From Candidatus Omnitrophota bacterium (GTDB lineage: Bacteria > Omnitrophota > Gorgyraeia > Gygaellales > Gygaellaceae), in NCBI GenBank assembly GCA_018400015.1, contig JAGYNB010000001.1:264124-328123 (forward strand): a stretch of 64,000 nt of DNA, given 5' to 3'. Shown here one piece after another: positions 52,959 through 60,814 of the stretch (position 1 is the first letter of the stretch; every line of letters begins with the position of its first letter). The translations under genes were made by a program, and so were the position numbers. The notes beneath the pieces were generated by a model. The model saw nothing but the letters and a program-made list of their open reading frames with translations. It was not told where the DNA came from and searched no databases.

Positions 52959-53135
52959 ATGGGACCTGTCGAAGCATTGAAAATAGCTCTTTCTAAGGAA
53001 GAAAGCTCCGTAGAGTTGTATACCAGACTTTCAACACAAGCGCCGGCAGCTCGTGATATTCTTCTTTTTTTAATTGAAGAAGAGCAAAAACATAAACATC
53101 TGATTGACAAAAAAATAGCAGAGTTAACAACCTAA
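52959..53135 (+). CDS. Small ferritin/rubrerythrin-like fragment protein (58 aa)
   Basis: Not in the ORF track (<60 aa). RBS aaggagg 5 nt upstream. Sequence MGPVEALKIALSKEESSVELY...LLFLIEEEQKHKHL resembles the first helix pair of ORF 54171. Confidence 0.3.
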   Translation: MGPVEALKIALSKEESSVELYTRLSTQAPAARDILLFLIEEEQKHKHLIDKKIAELTT

Positions 53136-53145
53136 AGGATAAACG

Positions 53146-53610
53146 ATGGTTAGTTTATCTATAGATGTGATCAAATTCTTCGAACGTCAGGGTTGCGTAT
53201 TGGTGGCGACTTTTTCTAGTGACGGCAGTATACATAATTCCTGTAAAGGCATTGTCAGGATTAACAAAAAAGGCGAAGTTTATATAATGGATCTTTATAA
53301 AGCAGTTACTTATAACAATCTTCAAAAAGATCATAGGATTTCCATAACGGCTTACAATGAAACTAAATTTACCGGATATAGCCTAAAGGGAAGAGCTAAA
53401 ATTCTTCCAGAAAGTGGCATAACAGCATCACTTTTAGATGATTGGAATAAAAGACTTACTTCAAGAATAGCCACAAGATTACTGGATAATATAAAAAGTA
53501 ATAATTCTTTAGCTCGACATCATGAAGCTCATTTGCCCAAGCCTAATTATTTAATTGTTATTCAGGTTGACGAAGTGGTTGATCTTGCTCCAAAAGAAGT
53601 GAAAATTTAG
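53146..53610 (+). CDS. Pyridoxamine 5'-phosphate oxidase-like FMN-binding split-barrel protein
   Basis: 154 aa; size and the GCVLVATFSSDGSIHNS pattern fit the PNPOx-like fold. Confidence 0.5.
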   Translation: MVSLSIDVIKFFERQGCVLVATFSSDGSIHNSCKGIVRINKKGEVYIMDLYKAVTYNNLQKDHRISITAYNETKFTGYSLKGRAKILPESGITASLLDDWNKRLTSRIATRLLDNIKSNNSLARHHEAHLPKPNYLIVIQVDEVVDLAPKEVKI

Positions 53611-53619
53611 AGGTGTTTT

Positions 53620-54156
53620 ATGTTTGTTTTGGCAATTAATGCAAGTCCAAGAATAAACGGAAATACGGATATATTGATTGATAAGGTATTGGAGGGGTTT
53701 ATTTCTAAAGGCTGTGATAGCGAGAAAATATATCTTGATAAACTTAACATAGCAGCTTACCGCGATGATCTGCCGCAGGATGATTTTAATAATGTTTTAG
53801 AGAAAATTAAAGCTGCTGATATTTTGATTTTGGGCTCACCGATATATTTTGGCAGCATGACAGCTCAATTAAAAACATTGATCGATCGCTTTCAAAGCGT
53901 GTGGGAAGATAAAATATTCAGAGGGTTAAATTTTTCGCACAAGAGGCAAAAGGGTATTTTTATATCCGTTCAGGGTGATAAAAAAAGCTCATATTTCGAT
54001 AATGCAAGATCTATCATTAAAAACTTTTTTGCTGTTACGGGCATAGAATATTCTAATGAATTATTTTGTACTGAGTGCGAAGATAAGCAAGACGTTTTAA
54101 ATAATAATGATTTACTGCAAGAAGCTTTTGAAATGGGGAAAGACTTTTCATTTTAA
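53620..54156 (+). CDS. Flavodoxin-like NAD(P)H-dependent FMN reductase
   Basis: 178 aa; the AINASPRINGNT...ILILGSPIYFGSMTAQLKTLIDR motif is typical of the NADPH-dependent FMN reductase / iron-sulfur-flavoprotein family (no Isf Cys cluster). Confidence 0.65.
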   Translation: MFVLAINASPRINGNTDILIDKVLEGFISKGCDSEKIYLDKLNIAAYRDDLPQDDFNNVLEKIKAADILILGSPIYFGSMTAQLKTLIDRFQSVWEDKIFRGLNFSHKRQKGIFISVQGDKKSSYFDNARSIIKNFFAVTGIEYSNELFCTECEDKQDVLNNNDLLQEAFEMGKDFSF

Positions 54157-54170
54157 TAAAGGAGAATTTT

Positions 54171-54668
54171 ATGGAAAATAAGATTTCCGGAGCGGAGTTG
54201 TTAAATATCGCTGTTAGAATTGAAAATAATGGTTATGCTTTTTATGATCAGTTTGCTAAAAAGGCTAAAGATAACGCAGTAAACGCTATGCTTATTTATT
54301 TAAGAGACGAAGAAAAGAAACACTCGGATAAATTTAGCTATATGCTAGAAGAATTGCATAAAAAAGCTGGTCAAGAAAGCCTTTATACGCAGGAATACTC
54401 TGCTTATATAAAAAGTATTGCTTCAAAGCTAGTATTTTCTCAAGAAAATACAGGTATAGAGATTGCTCAAGAAATGAAAAGCGATAAACAGGCAATTGAG
54501 AAGGCGATTGAATTTGAAAAAGATTCTATCCGTTATTATAATGCGATGAAAGAAGCGGTTTCTGAAGGAGAAAAGAACGTATTGGAAGAAGTGGTACATG
54601 AAGAAGAGGTGCATCTTGAGAAATTATCAGGTTTATTGGCAGGTTTAGAGAATGCAGGAGGTGTTTAA
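54171..54668 (+). CDS. Rubrerythrin/ferritin-like diiron protein
   Basis: 165 aa; paired E...EEKKH and EFEKDSIRYY...EEEVH helices consistent with a ferritin-like four-helix bundle. Confidence 0.55.
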   Translation: MENKISGAELLNIAVRIENNGYAFYDQFAKKAKDNAVNAMLIYLRDEEKKHSDKFSYMLEELHKKAGQESLYTQEYSAYIKSIASKLVFSQENTGIEIAQEMKSDKQAIEKAIEFEKDSIRYYNAMKEAVSEGEKNVLEEVVHEEEVHLEKLSGLLAGLENAGGV

Positions 54669-54905
54669 ATGAATAAGAATGTAATAGTGTATAGTACGCC
54701 TACATGTCCATATTGCGCGAAACTTAAAGATTTCTTAAAAGAAAATAATATTAATTTTACCGAATTTGATGTTTCTACTGATTTAACAGCAGCCCAGGAG
54801 ATGACTTCCAAGACAGGCCAGATGGGCGTGCCTGTTTTGGATATTGAGGGAGAAATTATTATTGGTTTTGATAAGGAAAAGATAAAATTCATTTTAGAAA
54901 TTTAA
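54669..54905 (+). CDS. Glutaredoxin-like protein
   Basis: 78 aa; YSTPTCPYCAKLKDFL CPYC active site; GVPVL cis-Pro region. Confidence 0.75.
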   Translation: MNKNVIVYSTPTCPYCAKLKDFLKENNINFTEFDVSTDLTAAQEMTSKTGQMGVPVLDIEGEIIIGFDKEKIKFILEI

Positions 54906-54924
54906 TAAAAAGGGAAACATAATT

Positions 54925-55869
54925 ATGCATATTTCTAAAGTTGCGGTTGTCGGTGTTGGCAGTGTAGGAAGCACGTTCGCTTATTCGCTGATGATTAGCG
55001 GCCTAGCAAGAGAAATAGTTTTAATTGACGCCAATAGGGAGCGCTTAATAGGCGAATGCATGGATTTAAACCACGGGGCGAGCTTTGTAAATCCGGTTGA
55101 TATTCATGAAGGTGATTATAAAGATTGTAAAGATGCTGATGTCGTGGTTGTTACTTTAGGAGCAAAACAAAGTCCGGGTCAGTCGCGGCTTGATTTAATA
55201 AAAACCAATGCCGGCATATTTAAAGAAGTGATTCCTAAAGTCGTAAAATATTGTAGGCAGGGGGTATTGTTGATTGTATCAAATCCCGTAGATATCCTCA
55301 CTTATCTTGCTTTGAAGATATCCGGAATCGAAAAAAATAGAGTTTTTGGTTCTGGTACAGTATTGGATAGTTCGAGGCTTAAGTATTCTATAAGTAAAAA
55401 CTGTAAAATTGATGCAAGGAATATCCATGCTTATATTATTGGAGAGCACGGTGATAGTGAATTGGTAGTATGGAGCCAGGCGAGCATTGCCGGAATGAAA
55501 ATTGCCGAATATTGTCCTAAGTGCAATAAGGCTTGTGATTATCACAAGAGGTTGAATAATATTTTTGATGAGGTTAAGAATTCCGCGTATGAGATTATTA
55601 AGCGCAAAGGCTCTACTTATTATGCCATAGGTTTATCTTTGGTTAAGATTGTGCAGGCAATAATAAGGGATGAAAATTCCATTCTGCCGGTTTCTAGTTT
55701 AATCGATGACTATTATGGGATAAAAGATGTTTGTTTTAGTCTTCCTTGCAAGGTTAACAGATCCGGAGTAGAAAAAGTTTTAAAGATAGAGTTGTCAAGT
55801 CAAGAACAGGTTCAGCTTAAAGAATCAGCGGATAAATTAAAGGGTATTATTGAATCGTTAGGTATATAA
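54925..55869 (+). CDS. ldh: L-lactate dehydrogenase (LDH/MDH family; Gln at substrate-specificity position suggests LDH)
   Basis: 314 aa; GVGSVGS NAD Rossmann; GAKQSPGQSRLDL (Q not R); IGEHGDSEL catalytic His loop. Confidence 0.75.
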   Translation: MHISKVAVVGVGSVGSTFAYSLMISGLAREIVLIDANRERLIGECMDLNHGASFVNPVDIHEGDYKDCKDADVVVVTLGAKQSPGQSRLDLIKTNAGIFKEVIPKVVKYCRQGVLLIVSNPVDILTYLALKISGIEKNRVFGSGTVLDSSRLKYSISKNCKIDARNIHAYIIGEHGDSELVVWSQASIAGMKIAEYCPKCNKACDYHKRLNNIFDEVKNSAYEIIKRKGSTYYAIGLSLVKIVQAIIRDENSILPVSSLIDDYYGIKDVCFSLPCKVNRSGVEKVLKIELSSQEQVQLKESADKLKGIIESLGI

Positions 55870-55898
55870 GTTTCTATTAAGGGTTTAAGGTAAATTAA

Positions 55899-55930
55899 AA
55901 AGGCAGCTGTTTAGGCTGCCTTTTTTGTTT
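55899..55930. terminator. Bidirectional rho-independent terminator between convergent ldh and glnA
   Basis: GGCAGC-tgtttag-GCTGCC hairpin flanked by A-run upstream and T-run downstream. Confidence 0.55.
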
Positions 55931-55943
55931 GTTATTGCATGGT

Positions 55944-57479
55944 TTAAAGAAGCGGAAGATATTTTTTGATTTCGTGTTGGGTAATTTGGATTCTGTATTC
56001 TTCCCACTCCTTCCTTTTGTTAAACAGGAACCTGTTAAATATATGGTTTCCCAGAGTTTCTTTTACGAATTGGCTGTTTTCGGTCTCTAATATTGCCTCA
56101 AACAGGTTCCCCGGCAAAGATGTAAGGCCGCGTTTTTCTCGTTCTTCCATGGCCATGTGGTATATATTTGGTTCTACCGGATCGGGAAGAGGGTATTTTT
56201 TTTCGATTCCTTCTAAACCTGCAGTGAGCATTACAGCAAACGCAAGATATGGATTGCATGCCGGGTCAGGGCAGCGCAATTCTGCGCGTGTTGCTTTTTC
56301 ATTACCAGGTCTATACATCGGTACTCGTATGAGCGTGGTTCTGTTTTTCTGCGCCCAGGAAGCGTATACAGGGGCTTCGTATCCTGAGACAAGCCTTTTA
56401 TATGAGTTTACCCACTGTGCAGTTAGAGAACATATTTCCCTGGCGTGTTTTAGCTGTCCGGAAATAAAATATTTGGCAATGCTTGATAAATGATGTCTGT
56501 CTTTTTTATCATAAAATGCGTTTTTGTCTTTATTGAACAATGATTGATGTATATGCATTCCAGAGCCGTTAAAACCGAATAAAGGCTTTGGCATAAAAGT
56601 AGCGTATACGCCGTTTTGTTGGGCGATTTCTTTTATGACGTACTTACAGGTGATTACGTTATCTGCAGCTTTTAAAGCGCTGGTGTATTTGGGGTCTATT
56701 TCGTGCTGGCTGGGCGCTACTTCATGGTGCGTAGCTTCCATAGTAATACCCATTTCTTCAAGAGTTCTTACAGTTTTATTTCTTAATGTGTTAGCTAAAT
56801 CATTAGGTATTAATTCGAAATACGACCCTTCGTCGATTATTTCAGGATTTTTCTCTGATTTAAAATAAAAGTATTCTATTTCCGCTCCGATCATAAAATC
56901 AAACCCGATTTTTTTAGCTCTTGCAAGGGCTCTTTTGAGAACATGCCTTGGGTCTCCTGCGTAAGGGGTTCCGTTCGTGGTGAGTATATCGCAGAACATC
57001 CTGGCAACAGGGTAATCTTTTGTTGTCCAGGGTAGTATTTTAAAAGTTGATGGGTCTGGAAGAGCAATGATATCGCTTTCTTCAGCCTCGGCAAAACCGG
57101 TGACAGAGGAGCCGTCAAAACCTTTGCCGTGTTCAAGAGCATCTTTTAACTCTCCCTTAGTGATAGAGACGCATTTTAAGATGCCCAGGATATCTACAAA
57201 CCAAAGCTGTATTGTTCTTATATCGTTTTGGTCAACTATTCTTAGAATTTCTTTAATCGAGGTTTTGTCTGAGGTGGTTGGTAAAGATGAAAAATTTGAT
57301 TGTTTATATGTGACAGTATTAAATCCTTTTTGGTTTTCGATTTCCTCCAAGGCAATAATGTATTGTTTACCTACTTTTTCTGCCTTTAATGATCCGTGGT
57401 TTATGCGTTCTATCACGGCCTGTCTTGAGATCTTAAGTACTTTGGCAGCTTCTGTAGGGCTTAAAAAATCCTTTTTCAT
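55944..57479 (-). CDS. glnA: Glutamine synthetase type I with N-terminal excisionase/MerR-like HTH DNA-binding domain
   Basis: GS motifs GFDGSS, KPLFGFNGSGMHIHQSL, NPYLAFAVMLTAGL; N-terminal ~65 aa LSPTEAAKVLKISRQAVIERI is an HTH_17-like domain. ATG at 57479 has a perfect RBS aaggagg; the tracked ORF extends to a TTG at 57497. Confidence 0.8.
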   Translation of the reverse strand: MKKDFLSPTEAAKVLKISRQAVIERINHGSLKAEKVGKQYIIALEEIENQKGFNTVTYKQSNFSSLPTTSDKTSIKEILRIVDQNDIRTIQLWFVDILGILKCVSITKGELKDALEHGKGFDGSSVTGFAEAEESDIIALPDPSTFKILPWTTKDYPVARMFCDILTTNGTPYAGDPRHVLKRALARAKKIGFDFMIGAEIEYFYFKSEKNPEIIDEGSYFELIPNDLANTLRNKTVRTLEEMGITMEATHHEVAPSQHEIDPKYTSALKAADNVITCKYVIKEIAQQNGVYATFMPKPLFGFNGSGMHIHQSLFNKDKNAFYDKKDRHHLSSIAKYFISGQLKHAREICSLTAQWVNSYKRLVSGYEAPVYASWAQKNRTTLIRVPMYRPGNEKATRAELRCPDPACNPYLAFAVMLTAGLEGIEKKYPLPDPVEPNIYHMAMEEREKRGLTSLPGNLFEAILETENSQFVKETLGNHIFNRFLFNKRKEWEEYRIQITQHEIKKYLPLL

Positions 57480-57490
57480 AGTTACCTCCT

Positions 57491-57555
57491 TTGACAATTG
57501 TTATGTTACTTTACGATTGACAAATGAATTATAACATATGATTTACGTTTGTCAA
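57491..57555. promoter_or_regulatory. Repeated TTGACAA half-sites / inverted repeat in the glnA-crtI divergent intergenic region
   Basis: TTGACAA at 57491-57497 and 57517-57523; inverted partner TTTGTCAA at 57548-57555 (TTGACAAA-n23-TTTGTCAA). Confidence 0.35.
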
Positions 57556-57651
57556 GTAGTTTTTATATTATTTTTGCTGTTATATTCAATTGAAAAAAAC
57601 CCTTGTTTGTATATATTTTTGGCAATAGAATAGTAATAACAGGAGGTTGCT

Positions 57652-59091
57652 ATGGCTGGTAAAATTATAGTTGTTGGTGCAGGAATTGGCGGTTTGGCTA
57701 CAGCAGCAAGATTATCAAGCAAGGGGTATGATGTTGAAGTGTTTGAGAAACTTCCTGTATGTGGAGGCAGAAACAATATAATAGAAGATAGAGGTTTTAA
57801 GTTTGATACAGGGCCTTCGTTTGTTTTGATGCCGGATTTTTTCGAAGAATTGTTTACATATTGCAATAAAGATATCAAAGATTATTTGGATTTAAAGGTA
57901 TTGGACCCAAGCTACAAGATTTTTTATCCGGATTCAGATGTTTTAACTGTTTTTAAAGATAGCGATAAAACCAAAGAGGAGCTGGAAAGAATAGAAAAGG
58001 GCGCTGCAAAAGGCTTTGATGGCTTTATCCGCGAGACCACCCGGCTTTATAATATAACTAGACCTTTATTGTACAAGTGCTTTTCTAAAAAAACCCTTTT
58101 TGACGTTAGATACCTACCGTTATTATTTAAGCTTAATCCTTTAAAAAGTTACTGGGATATTGCCAAGAAGTTTTTTAAAAGCGAGAAACTGCTTTATGCA
58201 TTTACTTTTGAGGCGATGTTTATGGGGGTTTCTCCTTTTAATGCTCCGGGTTTTTATAGTATTATCAGCTATGCCGACCATGTGCAAAAAATCTTTCATC
58301 CTATGGGCGGGATGTATGAAATACCCAAAAGCCTTGAGAAGATTTGTTTAGAAAACGGTGTGAAGATTCACTATAATTCACCGGTTAGTAAAATAAATAA
58401 GATCAACCGCAAGCTAAGCATTTCAACAGATACTATGATTACTGAAGCAGATAAAGTTGTTGTAAACGCCGATTATTCTTATACTCAGGAAAGTCTTTTA
58501 AAAAGAAAACTGCCTGATTATAAATATAGCTGCAGCGTATATCTGATTTATTTGGGTTTAAAGAAGAAATTAGGTCCTTTAGCGCATCATAATCTGTTTT
58601 TTTCTTCAAATCTTATAAAGAACCTGGATGAGATCTTTTCCTTAAAGAATGTTCCTGGCGATCCGTCTTTTTATATTCATGTGCCTACGGTTACAGATTC
58701 CAGTTTGGCTCCGGAAGGCAAGGAGATACTATATTTATTGATTCCCGTGCCTAATCTGGATAATCCAAAAGAAGATTTTTACTCAAAAGAGATTTATTTA
58801 AGGAATATTGTGTTTAATAAGATAAATAAAACCCTTGATATAAATCTGGAAGATTTAATTGAAGTCGAGCATAGGTTTTACCCCAAGGATTTCATCGGAA
58901 AATACAATATCAAATTTGGTGCAACCTTTGGTCTGGCCCATAATCTTATGCAGAGTGCTTTTTTTAGGCCTGTAAATTTCGACAATAAGTTCAGGAATCT
59001 TTATTTTGTAGGTGCAAGTACCCAGCCAGGTGGTGGATTGCCGGTTGTTATAGCAGCATCGAGAATAGTGGCAGATTTGATAACTCTTTAA
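57652..59091 (+). CDS. crtI: Phytoene desaturase-family FAD-dependent oxidoreductase (CrtI/CrtN-like)
   Basis: 479 aa; VVGAGIGGLATAARL...FEK..V.GGR Rossmann; C-terminal FVGASTQPGGGLPVV motif of the CrtI family. Confidence 0.75.
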   Translation: MAGKIIVVGAGIGGLATAARLSSKGYDVEVFEKLPVCGGRNNIIEDRGFKFDTGPSFVLMPDFFEELFTYCNKDIKDYLDLKVLDPSYKIFYPDSDVLTVFKDSDKTKEELERIEKGAAKGFDGFIRETTRLYNITRPLLYKCFSKKTLFDVRYLPLLFKLNPLKSYWDIAKKFFKSEKLLYAFTFEAMFMGVSPFNAPGFYSIISYADHVQKIFHPMGGMYEIPKSLEKICLENGVKIHYNSPVSKINKINRKLSISTDTMITEADKVVVNADYSYTQESLLKRKLPDYKYSCSVYLIYLGLKKKLGPLAHHNLFFSSNLIKNLDEIFSLKNVPGDPSFYIHVPTVTDSSLAPEGKEILYLLIPVPNLDNPKEDFYSKEIYLRNIVFNKINKTLDINLEDLIEVEHRFYPKDFIGKYNIKFGATFGLAHNLMQSAFFRPVNFDNKFRNLYFVGASTQPGGGLPVVIAASRIVADLITL

Positions 59092-59936
59092 TAAAGCTTA
59101 CTTAATTTTCTAATGTATTTGATCACTGCGTTAGTTGTAACATCAGGTGTAGAAGCCCCTGCAGTTACGCCAACACTTTTTACATTTTTAAGCCACTCTT
59201 TTTTAATATCAGTAGGTTTATTAACCCAGTAACTGTTTTTATTAAGTTCACGTGAGATTTGATAAAGCCTTTTTGTATTGGCGCTGTGTTTAGATCCGAT
59301 AATGATCATCACATCGTTTTCTAACGGGAGTTTCTTTATTTCTTTTTGTTTGAGCCTGGTAGGGTTACAGATGGTGTTAAAAAACATAAGGTGTTTTATG
59401 ACTTTTTTTAAATTATTTGAAACTCGCATCACCTTATTGTAATTTTGCGTAGATTGAACGACAACAGCTGCTTTTTTTACTTTTTTCAATGTTTTTAAAG
59501 GCAGTTTATGTTTTGTATCAATTAAAATAGCTTTTTTATCCAGCTGTCCAAGGATACCCAGGACCTCATCGTGTTTTTTGTCCCCGATAACTATTATCTT
59601 ATAACCTTTCTTTTCCATGGTCACAGCTATGTTATGGATTTCTTTTACCATGGGACAGGTGGCGTCTACAATGTTATATCCTAATTTATTAGCAGAGTTT
59701 ATTGTTTGTTTCCCTACCCCGTGTGCCCTGACAAGTAAGAGTTTATTTGTGCCCTTTTTTAGCTTAGTGACTTTTTTGATTCCGATTTTACTGATTTGTT
59801 TTACAACATCTTCGTTGTGTACGATATCTCCGAGCATCTCTACATTAAGGTGGGGTTTTTTGGTTTCATGGGCAATTTTTAAAGCGCGTTTTACCCCGAA
59901 GCAAAAACCAGCTGATTTTGCAAGATTGATTTTCAT
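59088..59936 (-). CDS. ispH: 4-hydroxy-3-methylbut-2-enyl diphosphate reductase IspH (LytB)
   Basis: 282 aa; MKINLAKSAGFCFGVKRAL N-terminus with the first cluster Cys; later Cys ligands (ATCPMV, NTICNPT). Confidence 0.85.
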   Translation of the reverse strand: MKINLAKSAGFCFGVKRALKIAHETKKPHLNVEMLGDIVHNEDVVKQISKIGIKKVTKLKKGTNKLLLVRAHGVGKQTINSANKLGYNIVDATCPMVKEIHNIAVTMEKKGYKIIVIGDKKHDEVLGILGQLDKKAILIDTKHKLPLKTLKKVKKAAVVVQSTQNYNKVMRVSNNLKKVIKHLMFFNTICNPTRLKQKEIKKLPLENDVMIIIGSKHSANTKRLYQISRELNKNSYWVNKPTDIKKEWLKNVKSVGVTAGASTPDVTTNAVIKYIRKLSKLY

Positions 59937-60814
59937 GATAGGTTCCTTAAGATATGCTTTAATAGGGTCATTATTTTTTTTATATTACTGACGTATATTC
60001 TTTTTGAGAATACATCATAACCTTTTTTTTCTATTTCTTCAAGAATAAGGGAGTAGATTTCACTCATTAAGGCAACCAACATTCGGAACTGTTTTTGTTT
60101 TATAAGCGCTATGCCTTGTTTTGAATGGAAGTAATAGCTTTTTGCTCTTTTAACCTGCATTTTTAATAGGTCTATAAAATCGTTATTTAAAGTGGAATCT
60201 TTGATATCATTTTCGCATAAATTGTATTGTTTTAATTCGTCAAGCGGCAGGTATATTCTGTTTCTGAAGTAATCTTCTTTTATGTCCCTGATTATATTGG
60301 TTAGTTGCATGGCAATTCCAAGCTCAATTGCGTGTTTTTGGGCGTCTTCATTATCTATGCCGATTATTTTAAGCAGCATAAGCCCGATTACCCCAGCAAC
60401 TTTATAGCAGTAGCTGTAAAGTTCGTTAAAATTACTGTACCTATTTTTATCTAGGTCTATCTCCATTCCTGAGATGAGTTCAATGAAGTATTCTTTTGGT
60501 ATGGAATATTTATTGGTAATGTGTCTGAGTGCCAGAAATAGATTCTCCTTGATTGGCTGGCTGCTATAAGAGATATTTATTTTAGATTTAATGTTATTTA
60601 GCTTATTCGCGGCGTTTACAGGGGTTAAATCAACGGCTTCATCAATGAGTCTACATACTGCATAAATACAGTAACAGGCAATTCTTTTTTCTTTGTTTAA
60701 TACCTTAGAGGCAAAGTAGAATGTCTTGGCGTGTTTTTTGGTTATGTATTGTGCCTTTTTAAAACCTGCCTCAAGTGAGTTTTCGGGTTTACGAATCATG
60801 AAAGTATTGTACAA
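59933..60814 (-). CDS. crtB: Phytoene/squalene synthase-family enzyme (CrtB-like)
   Basis: 293 aa; YCYKVAGVIGLM and GIAMQLTNIIRDIKED...RIYLP trans-isoprenyl diphosphate synthase head-to-head motifs. Confidence 0.75.
   Translation of the reverse strand: MYNTFMIRKPENSLEAGFKKAQYITKKHAKTFYFASKVLNKEKRIACYCIYAVCRLIDEAVDLTPVNAANKLNNIKSKINISYSSQPIKENLFLALRHITNKYSIPKEYFIELISGMEIDLDKNRYSNFNELYSYCYKVAGVIGLMLLKIIGIDNEDAQKHAIELGIAMQLTNIIRDIKEDYFRNRIYLPLDELKQYNLCENDIKDSTLNNDFIDLLKMQVKRAKSYYFHSKQGIALIKQKQFRMLVALMSEIYSLILEEIEKKGYDVFSKRIYVSNIKKIMTLLKHILRNLS

Follow-up and report, generated by a model that had tools for sequence, protein, structure and literature searches.

A helix-turn-helix domain fused to glutamine synthetase in Candidatus Omnitrophota, with operator-like palindromes at the promoter of its own gene

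The 64,000-nucleotide stretch of contig JAGYNB010000001.1 from a Candidatus Omnitrophota bacterium, referred to as the window, carries on its reverse strand a gene for a protein in which a helix-turn-helix (HTH) domain precedes a glutamine synthetase (GS). The gene and its product are here called HTH-GS. The open reading frame, coding for 511 amino acids, was found at 55944-57479 as an initial annotation made from the sequence alone had described it. The features of the locus are as follows.

55944..57479, reverse strand: HTH-GS coding sequence, 511 amino acids, stop codon included (open reading frame list and sequence; identical to protein P0001)
57336..57467, reverse strand: HTH_17 winged HTH domain, residues 5-48 (Pfam PF12728)
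57276..57335, reverse strand: linker, variable, lysine-rich and disordered, about residues 49-68 (predicted local distance difference test, pLDDT, and pairwise identity)
56979..57275, reverse strand: N-terminal helix alpha1 of GS (residues 69-84) and beta-grasp (to residue 167) (Pfam, TIGR00653 and model)
55959..56957, reverse strand: GS catalytic domain, residues 175-507 (Pfam Gln-synt_C)
57485..57491, reverse strand: ribosome-binding site AAGGAGG, 5 nucleotides ahead of the ATG at 57479 (read from the sequence)
57528..57555, reverse strand: sigma-70 promoter, TTGACA at 57555-57550, 16-nucleotide spacer, TG-extended TATAAT at 57533-57528
57541..57556, no strand: putative operator box 1, CTTGACAAACGTAAAT, overlapping the -35 hexamer
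57509..57524, no strand: putative operator box 2, degenerate, TTTGTCAATCGTAAAG, just past the -10 element and over the expected transcription start
55897..55925, no strand: intrinsic terminator, bidirectional and common to the convergent ldh gene (terminator scan; stem of 11-12 bp, then a T run, on both strands)

The promoter matches the sigma-70 consensus at 12 of 12 positions and is the sole perfect sigma-70 promoter of the region, and an equivalent promoter is conserved at orthologous HTH-GS loci. As the promoter is paired with a bidirectional terminator, HTH-GS forms a monocistronic transcription unit. The ribosome-binding site proposed in the initial annotation was confirmed, its spacer being 5 rather than 6 nucleotides, a trivial difference. 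An alternative, longer reading from a TTG at 57497 was rejected because this codon overlaps the ribosome-binding site and is used by no orthologue. Residues 2-160 of the translated frame contain no methionine, and therefore a separate ATG-started translation of the GS part is impossible. With ribosome-binding site and promoter both ahead of the HTH, the earlier view that the HTH is translated as part of the GS stands. An Rfam search of the window and of 12 loci with long leaders gave no match, and hence no known glutamine riboswitch or leader.

The assignment of the N-terminal module to the HTH_17/excisionase-MerR type is upheld by its Pfam match and its predicted fold, and with it the concern that this segment might lack an HTH fold falls away. 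PF12728 (HTH_17) matches residues 5-48 with 30.1 bits against a gathering cut-off of 27, and the NCBIfam model TIGR01764 ('excise') lies marginally under its own cut-off (28.2 versus 28.8 bits). In an AlphaFold2 model of residues 1-52, built from a 40-sequence alignment, helices at residues 8-15 and 19-28 are followed by a hairpin of strands 33-36 and 39-43 and by a further helix at 44-52, with a pLDDT of about 90; this is the two-helix HTH with beta-hairpin wing of the HTH_17/excisionase-type winged HTH. A Foldseek search of the model against PDB gave best matches with TM-scores normalised to the query (TMq) of 0.62-0.72, comprising BldC-DNA, RacA-DNA, excisionases, N-domains of the MerR family (NmlR, SoxR, BmrR and MtaN) and Staphylococcus aureus GlnR-DNA (7tea, TMq 0.65). 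The matches on the excisionase side were RdfS, Pukovnik Xis and a P2 Cox-like protein, which share with BldC and RacA a Foldseek probability of 0.99-1.0; BirA (1hxd, 8fi3) was a weak match. At the sequence level, a PDB search with the N-domain as a single sequence returned no match, and a search with its profile reached E>0.04 at best, with no GlnR or TnrA chain at E<=10. The module is thus, by profile match and predicted structure, an excisionase/MerR-type winged helix.

Conservation across 120 orthologues follows the domain borders. Mean pairwise identity is 71% in the HTH, 19% in the linker and 81% in each GS domain, indicating that the HTH is under constraint. Invariant HTH residues are P8, R19, Q20, A21, I26, A33, G37, Y40 and I41, and the recognition-helix residues SRQAV-I-xRI are invariant as well. 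The linker is 20-40 amino acids long and rich in lysine, with a mean net charge of +2.9 in these orthologues. In the full-length model the HTH stays a separate domain on a disordered tether, with pLDDT below 50 for residues 52-69. Neither the dimerisation coiled coil nor the effector domain of the classical MerR C-terminal architecture was found after the HTH in the models, in which the helix at 44-52 leads into disorder and then into helix alpha1 of GS.

The GS part, of about 435 amino acids, is complete. Gln-synt_N covers residues 87-167 (89.4 bits) and Gln-synt_C residues 175-507 (420 bits); the NCBIfam equivalog model for GlnA, TIGR00653, matches residues 77-508 with 509.5 bits (cut-off 429), and helix alpha1 is modelled at residues 69-84, as is usual for GS. 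The nearest solved structure is GlnA1 of Methanosarcina mazei (8ufj/8tfb; 482 bits, residues 73-511), next to which stand Gram-positive GSI-alpha enzymes, also aligned over their full length. The archaeal and Gram-positive GSI-alpha structures together give full-length matches of 430-483 bits. Enterobacterial and mycobacterial GS structures, which we take to be GSI-beta, align only partially, from about residue 215, with about 255 bits. The protein is of the short form, without the insertion of about 25 residues that marks GSI-beta, and its sequence identifies it as a complete type I-alpha GS. Six motifs that align with M. mazei GlnA1 show no variation among 24 orthologues: EIEYFYF, HHEVAPSQHEID, NGSGMHxH, NSYKRL, GYEAP and ELRCPD; presumably they serve the metal, ATP, glutamate and flap functions. 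An active enzyme is the best explanation of these features.

The regulatory sites known from other GSI-alpha enzymes fare differently. The arginine of the D50' loop (R66 in M. mazei) is replaced by an invariant glutamate, Glu131 (57087-57089), in the motif GFAEAEESD, a residue shared with the HTH-less relatives L012-L014, and the same position appears to correspond to Arg62 of Bacillus GS. As for the M. mazei 2-oxoglutarate site, residues F24, R26, S38, R87, D170, R172, R173 and S189 align with T89, Q91, C103, T152, T231, R233, N234 and T250, so that R172 alone is retained. The M. mazei-type 2-oxoglutarate allosteric switch is therefore probably absent. Both this switch and the Bacillus-type glutamine feedback through Arg62 were considered as sensing mechanisms and rejected, since the residues concerned are not conserved.

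The fusion recurs within one phylum. A whole-protein search listed 120 clusters, at 69-100% identity and full coverage. All 120 are matched by the hidden Markov model of the HTH, the precomputed Pfam column shows PF12728 in 113 of them, and nearly all carry the precomputed combination PF12728+PF03951+PF00120. Listed clusters that bear a name are Candidatus Omnitrophota or Omnitrophica, and the window protein clusters with a protein of Candidatus Gygaella obscura of the phylum Omnitrophota. At the DNA level the fusion was found in 60 independent loci, the source being essentially always Candidatus Omnitrophota: among GTDB species genomes the HTH is in frame at 12 of the 80 best GS loci, and 47 further HTH-GS loci came from metagenomes scanned with the HTH alignment. 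The closest HTH-less GS (L012-L017) are 69-74% identical in the GS part, implying gain or loss of the domain inside a lineage of closely related GS. Two apparent full-length matches, L044 and L056, were discarded as artefacts of an upstream glnB gene and of a high-GC open frame. A representative-library search with residues 1-170 returned mostly GS fragments, with HTH and beta-grasp both covered in P0122 and P0192 only, as expected of one narrow family, and other GS with N-terminal offsets of 50-95 amino acids showed no Pfam HTH. A word-indexed search with residues 1-80 by themselves yielded a single candidate and no scored match.

Several neighbours in sequence space deserve a record. HTH-GS proteins 75-77% identical to that of the window occur in metagenome-assembled genomes labelled 'Methanosarcinales archaeon' or 'Planctomycetia' (L002, L003, L004, L006); these contigs are probably mis-binned or mislabelled Omnitrophota. 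The nearest non-GS relatives found by the HTH query are proteins of about 236 amino acids with four tandem HTH_17 domains (L130-L141, e.g. L132:4995-5705; P0209, P0262), several of them from human-gut assemblies. Two giant proteins, P0121 (4424 amino acids) and P0123 (2757 amino acids), contain 10 and 5 separate stretches, respectively, that match the GS beta-grasp (query residues ~70-150).

Alignment of the regions upstream of the orthologues revealed, together with the conserved promoter, a 16-bp palindrome, CTTTACA-NN-TGTAAAG. Its occurrences were counted at up to two mismatches, upstream being defined as the 250 bp before a gene.

Upstream regions of HTH-GS genes, 14.6 kb: 88 sites, 56 of 60 loci positive
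Remainder of the HTH-GS loci, 456 kb: 1 site (L011, within the GS coding region)
Surroundings of 68 HTH-less GS genes, 747 kb: 1 site
Surroundings of stand-alone or tandem HTH_17 genes, 113 kb: 0 sites
Shuffled upstream regions, same size: 0.1 sites expected

Two boxes are present in 46 non-identical promoters. Box 1, with the consensus CTTGACAAnTGTAAAG, supplies the -35 hexamer by its left half, and box 2, with the consensus CTTTACAATTGTAAAG, lies over the -10/+1 region. The boxes are spaced by 21 bp in 16 promoters, where box 2 contains the -10 element, and by 27-28 bp in 29 promoters, where box 2 starts in the last two bases of the -10 element and covers the start site. The intergenic DNA around the boxes is otherwise unalignable. 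Because transcription starts downstream of box 1, the signal works at the level of DNA and not of RNA; for the same reason an RNA hairpin formed by box 2 was rejected as the main explanation, box 1 being the better conserved of the two.

Some lineages show additional elements. In the promoters with 21-bp spacing CTTTACA is present as a third half-site close to the ribosome-binding site, and in this lineage (L086:1381-4719; also L087, L088, L090 and L004) the neighbourhood consists of a divergent gene for a GAF-ANTAR protein followed by a gene resembling those for extracytoplasmic function (ECF) sigma factors, amtB and glnK. Together, the GAF-ANTAR neighbourhood and the third half-site may represent a second, RNA-level layer of nitrogen control. 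In the sub-lineage of L120, L121 and L124 an extra box-1-like site, CTTGACAAnTGTAAAG, is situated about 190-200 bp upstream of the start and about 120-130 bp upstream of the main pair; it might serve as a second promoter or in DNA looping.

The sites appear to be confined to the gene itself. No further site was found in the 64-kb window at up to two mismatches; in four loci the amtB-glnK genes, about 2-3 kb away, have no box upstream even at four mismatches, and the nitrogen genes next to some orthologues (amtB-glnK, gdhA, gltD-like) have no site. A regulon of the GlnR/TnrA kind, as the initial annotation's comparison implied, is thus not borne out, and self-regulation alone is indicated. The gene neighbourhood is variable: among 22 loci no family reaches a count above 9, those met most often are the GAF-ANTAR RNA-binding protein (the most frequent), gdhA and the gltD-like gene, and no conserved DNA-binding neighbour gene was found. 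Therefore, only one DNA-binding domain, the HTH of the GS itself, accompanies the operator in every case. The flanks of HTH-GS in the window hold no nitrogen genes (52959-55869 and 57652-60814). The former stretch is an oxidative-stress-type cluster (PNPOx-like protein, flavin mononucleotide reductase, rubrerythrin, glutaredoxin and Ldh), and the latter an isoprenoid/carotenoid-type set (amine-oxidase/CrtI-like protein, IspH and squalene/phytoene synthase).

On these grounds HTH-GS is rather likely to be a trigger enzyme that directly represses its own promoter, that is, an example of negative autoregulation. Through a short disordered linker, the N-terminus of GS is connected to a winged HTH without a built-in dimerisation domain; in the oligomer many such HTH domains would be kept close together. 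Pairs of them could bind the 16-bp palindromes over the -35 and -10/+1 regions of the strong sigma-70 promoter of HTH-GS and thereby silence it, making HTH-GS a covalent, hard-wired counterpart of the Bacillus complex of feedback-inhibited GS (FBI-GS) with GlnR. Dimerisation of a monomeric MerR-like winged HTH on a palindrome requires assistance, which the oligomer of GS would provide. We infer that the HTH is the binder of the palindromes and that binding represses; the oligomeric or ligand state of the enzyme would modulate the binding. Repression is favoured because a consensus promoter needs no activator and because the boxes occupy its -35 and -10/+1 regions, and repression by HTH-GS in particular because its HTH is the sole DNA-binding module always linked to the boxes. 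The earlier proposal that this GS acts as its own regulator has accordingly gained comparative support, from paired palindromes on the core promoter that occur at HTH-GS genes only. The feedback half of its comparison with the GlnR/TnrA circuit is not supported: Bacillus Arg62 is replaced by Glu131, and the 2-oxoglutarate site is not conserved. The operator also differs from the TnrA/GlnR box.

A number of observations weigh against autorepression. HTH-GS loci form one clade, so the co-occurrence of motif and HTH could reflect shared ancestry. The lineage of L009 and L126 has no motif within 250 bp, and at a spacing of 27-28 bp the boxes do not lie on the same face of the DNA helix. BldC, the nearest structural analogue, binds direct repeats as head-to-tail multimers (PMC5859096), whereas the sites here are palindromes. 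Coupling to an effector is not evident, with Glu131 in place of Arg62 and the 2-oxoglutarate ligands mostly replaced. The boxes of the window are themselves imperfect: box 1 has three mismatches to the ideal palindrome CTTTACANNTGTAAAG, and two to the box-1 consensus, and box 2 has four mismatches to the palindrome and lies at an unusual distance of 32 bp from box 1. Both variants of box 1 in the window occur elsewhere, and its position is that found in L081 and at least 50 other loci. The close relative L081 has CTTGTCAATCGTAAAG at the position of box 2 and shares the arrangement of the window, and in other lineages box 2 is almost perfect and spaced by 21 or 27-28 bp. The case for an operator, as judged by comparison of promoters, is thus strong at the level of the family and moderate for the promoter of the window itself.

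A bolder version of autorepression, in which the GS oligomer itself is both nitrogen sensor and repressor, a 12-valent DNA-binding machine, is doubtful, if conceivable. Here the number of HTH pairs with access to the two operators would depend on the assembly of the enzyme or on its catalytic and feedback state (glutamine, nucleotides, oligomer equilibrium). For glnA in small-genome Omnitrophota, one protein would thereby take the place of a GlnR/TnrA, NtrBC or NtcA layer, and it would be the first enzyme-transcription factor built on GS.

Among the alternatives to autorepression by HTH-GS, the one that survives best, though it is unlikely, assigns the palindromes to a separate clade-specific repressor and gives the HTH of GS another job, such as non-specific DNA or nucleoid association or the docking of a partner. 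Motif and fusion are both limited to one clade, so that their association may be phylogenetic, and stand-alone HTH_17 relatives do exist (L125, L129, L131). However, the HTH-GS promoter is the only place of the motif in about 520 kb of DNA that bears HTH-GS, no conserved DNA-binding gene adjoins it, and the HTH-less GS genes of other Omnitrophota lack it; moreover, an invariant recognition helix, SRQAV-I-xRI, suits a sequence-specific role better than a non-specific one.

It is improbable that the enzymatic function has been lost and that the protein is a GS-derived sensor or transcription factor, with another GS carrying out assimilation. Enzyme-derived sensors are known, but this protein scores above the GlnA equivalog cut-off, all six catalytic motifs listed above (EIEYFYF to ELRCPD, HHEVAPSQHEID included) are invariant, and the catalytic domain, at 81%, is the most conserved part.

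Quite improbable, too, is that HTH-GS binds the boxes and activates in the manner of MerR, or has a dual role. Activation by MerR relies on over-long promoter spacers of 19-20 bp. The fold is MerR-like, and MerR proteins bind between the -35 and -10 elements, but the spacer is 16 bp in the window and, counted from the sequences, 16-17 bp in the orthologues. With their consensus TTGACA and TG-extended -10 element such promoters need no activator; in addition, the boxes cover the -35 element and the start site, and neither a coiled coil nor an effector domain follows the HTH.

That the fusion arose artificially, through a faulty join in assembly, a frameshift or a miscalled start, can practically be dismissed, as it recurs in frame in 60 independent loci and 120 clusters with ribosome-binding site and promoter ahead of the HTH. 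The worry about an assembly join, raised initially, is thereby removed, as is the possibility of a downstream start in orthologues with the HTH in a separate small gene, for which the only split example is L106. Two records seem to speak for an artefact. The NCBI protein MDP8259448.1 (P0272, Candidatus Gygaella obscura), of 443 amino acids, begins past the HTH, but its start is an Ile codon in the identical or near-identical 511-amino-acid protein P0271 (L081:5001-6536), and the HTH was trimmed off by annotation. L106:1087-1536, on a 1.5-kb contig, has an in-frame stop in the A-rich linker region, but the reading frame resumes past it and the gene is otherwise identical to that of L105, so a homopolymer error in sequencing, and not a split gene, probably accounts for the stop.

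No description of an HTH-GS fusion was found by full-text searches of the literature. GS is the textbook case of an enzyme that informs transcription through partners, namely GlnR/TnrA, PII/NtrBC and NtcA/IF factors. If autorepression is true, no link of this enzyme to transcription would be more direct than a GS that carries a DNA-binding domain and has a matching operator at its promoter, and a major enzyme of central metabolism would join the small circle of true trigger enzymes (PutA, BirA, NadR). HTH-GS would, besides, offer a natural test of the model, proposed for GlnR, in which tethering drives dimerisation. The promoter, operator and putative repressor form a testable set from an uncultivated phylum. 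For annotation, the case shows that names miss GlnA, many such NCBI records being called 'beta-grasp domain-containing protein', and that at least one record has had its HTH trimmed.

The closest parallel is the FBI-GS-GlnR/TnrA system of Bacillota (Travis et al. 2022, PMC9249791; Schumacher et al. 2015, PMC4335299), in which GSI-alpha and a winged HTH of the MerR type are likewise brought together. In that system FBI-GS captures the C-tails of GlnR and concentrates the DNA-binding domains on linkers of about 30 residues; it has been proposed that tails held in this way juxtapose the DNA-binding domains and promote dimerisation on the operator (PMC9249791). HTH-GS would resemble it in holding DNA-binding domains on disordered linkers of about 30 residues from a GS oligomer and in targeting the glnA promoter, repressed there and predicted to be so here. 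The link differs: the C-tail of GlnR/TnrA is captured in the active-site pore, whereas the link in HTH-GS is covalent and N-terminal and involves no C-tail, and the two HTH domains have no detectable sequence relationship. Arg62 in the D50' loop of Bacillus GS stabilises the glutamine-bound flap, touching glutamine-bound Glu304, and contacts the GlnR tail (PMC9249791); HTH-GS has Glu131 there. In a further difference, no sites were seen at the neighbouring nitrogen genes of HTH-GS. The TnrA/GlnR box has the consensus TGTNA-N7-TNACA, in contrast to the 7-2-7 palindrome of HTH-GS, and TGTAA...TTACA spacings between the boxes, counted from the sequences, are 9 or 15 nucleotides, never 7. By its sequence features HTH-GS thus lies outside both the GlnR/TnrA and the classical MerR families.

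M. mazei GlnA1 (PDB 8tfb, 8ufj, 8s59; PMC11957540) is of the same GSI-alpha type and is the closest solved GS. It differs in having no HTH and in possessing the 2-oxoglutarate site that is mostly replaced in HTH-GS. RacA recognises a short inverted repeat. BldC and RacA (PMC5859096; PDB 6ama, 6amk, 5i44), the best fold matches at TMq 0.66-0.72, are small MerR-like winged HTH modules without a coiled coil that need external multimerisation, as would the HTH of HTH-GS. They differ in that no enzyme is fused to them and in that their sequence identity to the HTH is just 16-20%.

Fused trigger enzymes are represented by PutA (ribbon-helix-helix and proline dehydrogenase), BirA (winged HTH and biotin ligase) and NadR (HTH and nicotinamide mononucleotide adenylyltransferase). 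HTH-GS differs from them in its enzyme, in its HTH family and in the scaffold formed by its oligomer, which is presumably dodecameric. How a ligand is coupled to DNA binding is well defined in BirA and PutA, whereas in HTH-GS no known allosteric site was found conserved. Common to all of them is an N-terminal DNA-binding domain joined in one polypeptide to a working metabolic enzyme, an activity that is predicted for HTH-GS, with an operator at the enzyme's own promoter, to which the comparative counts point in the case of HTH-GS.

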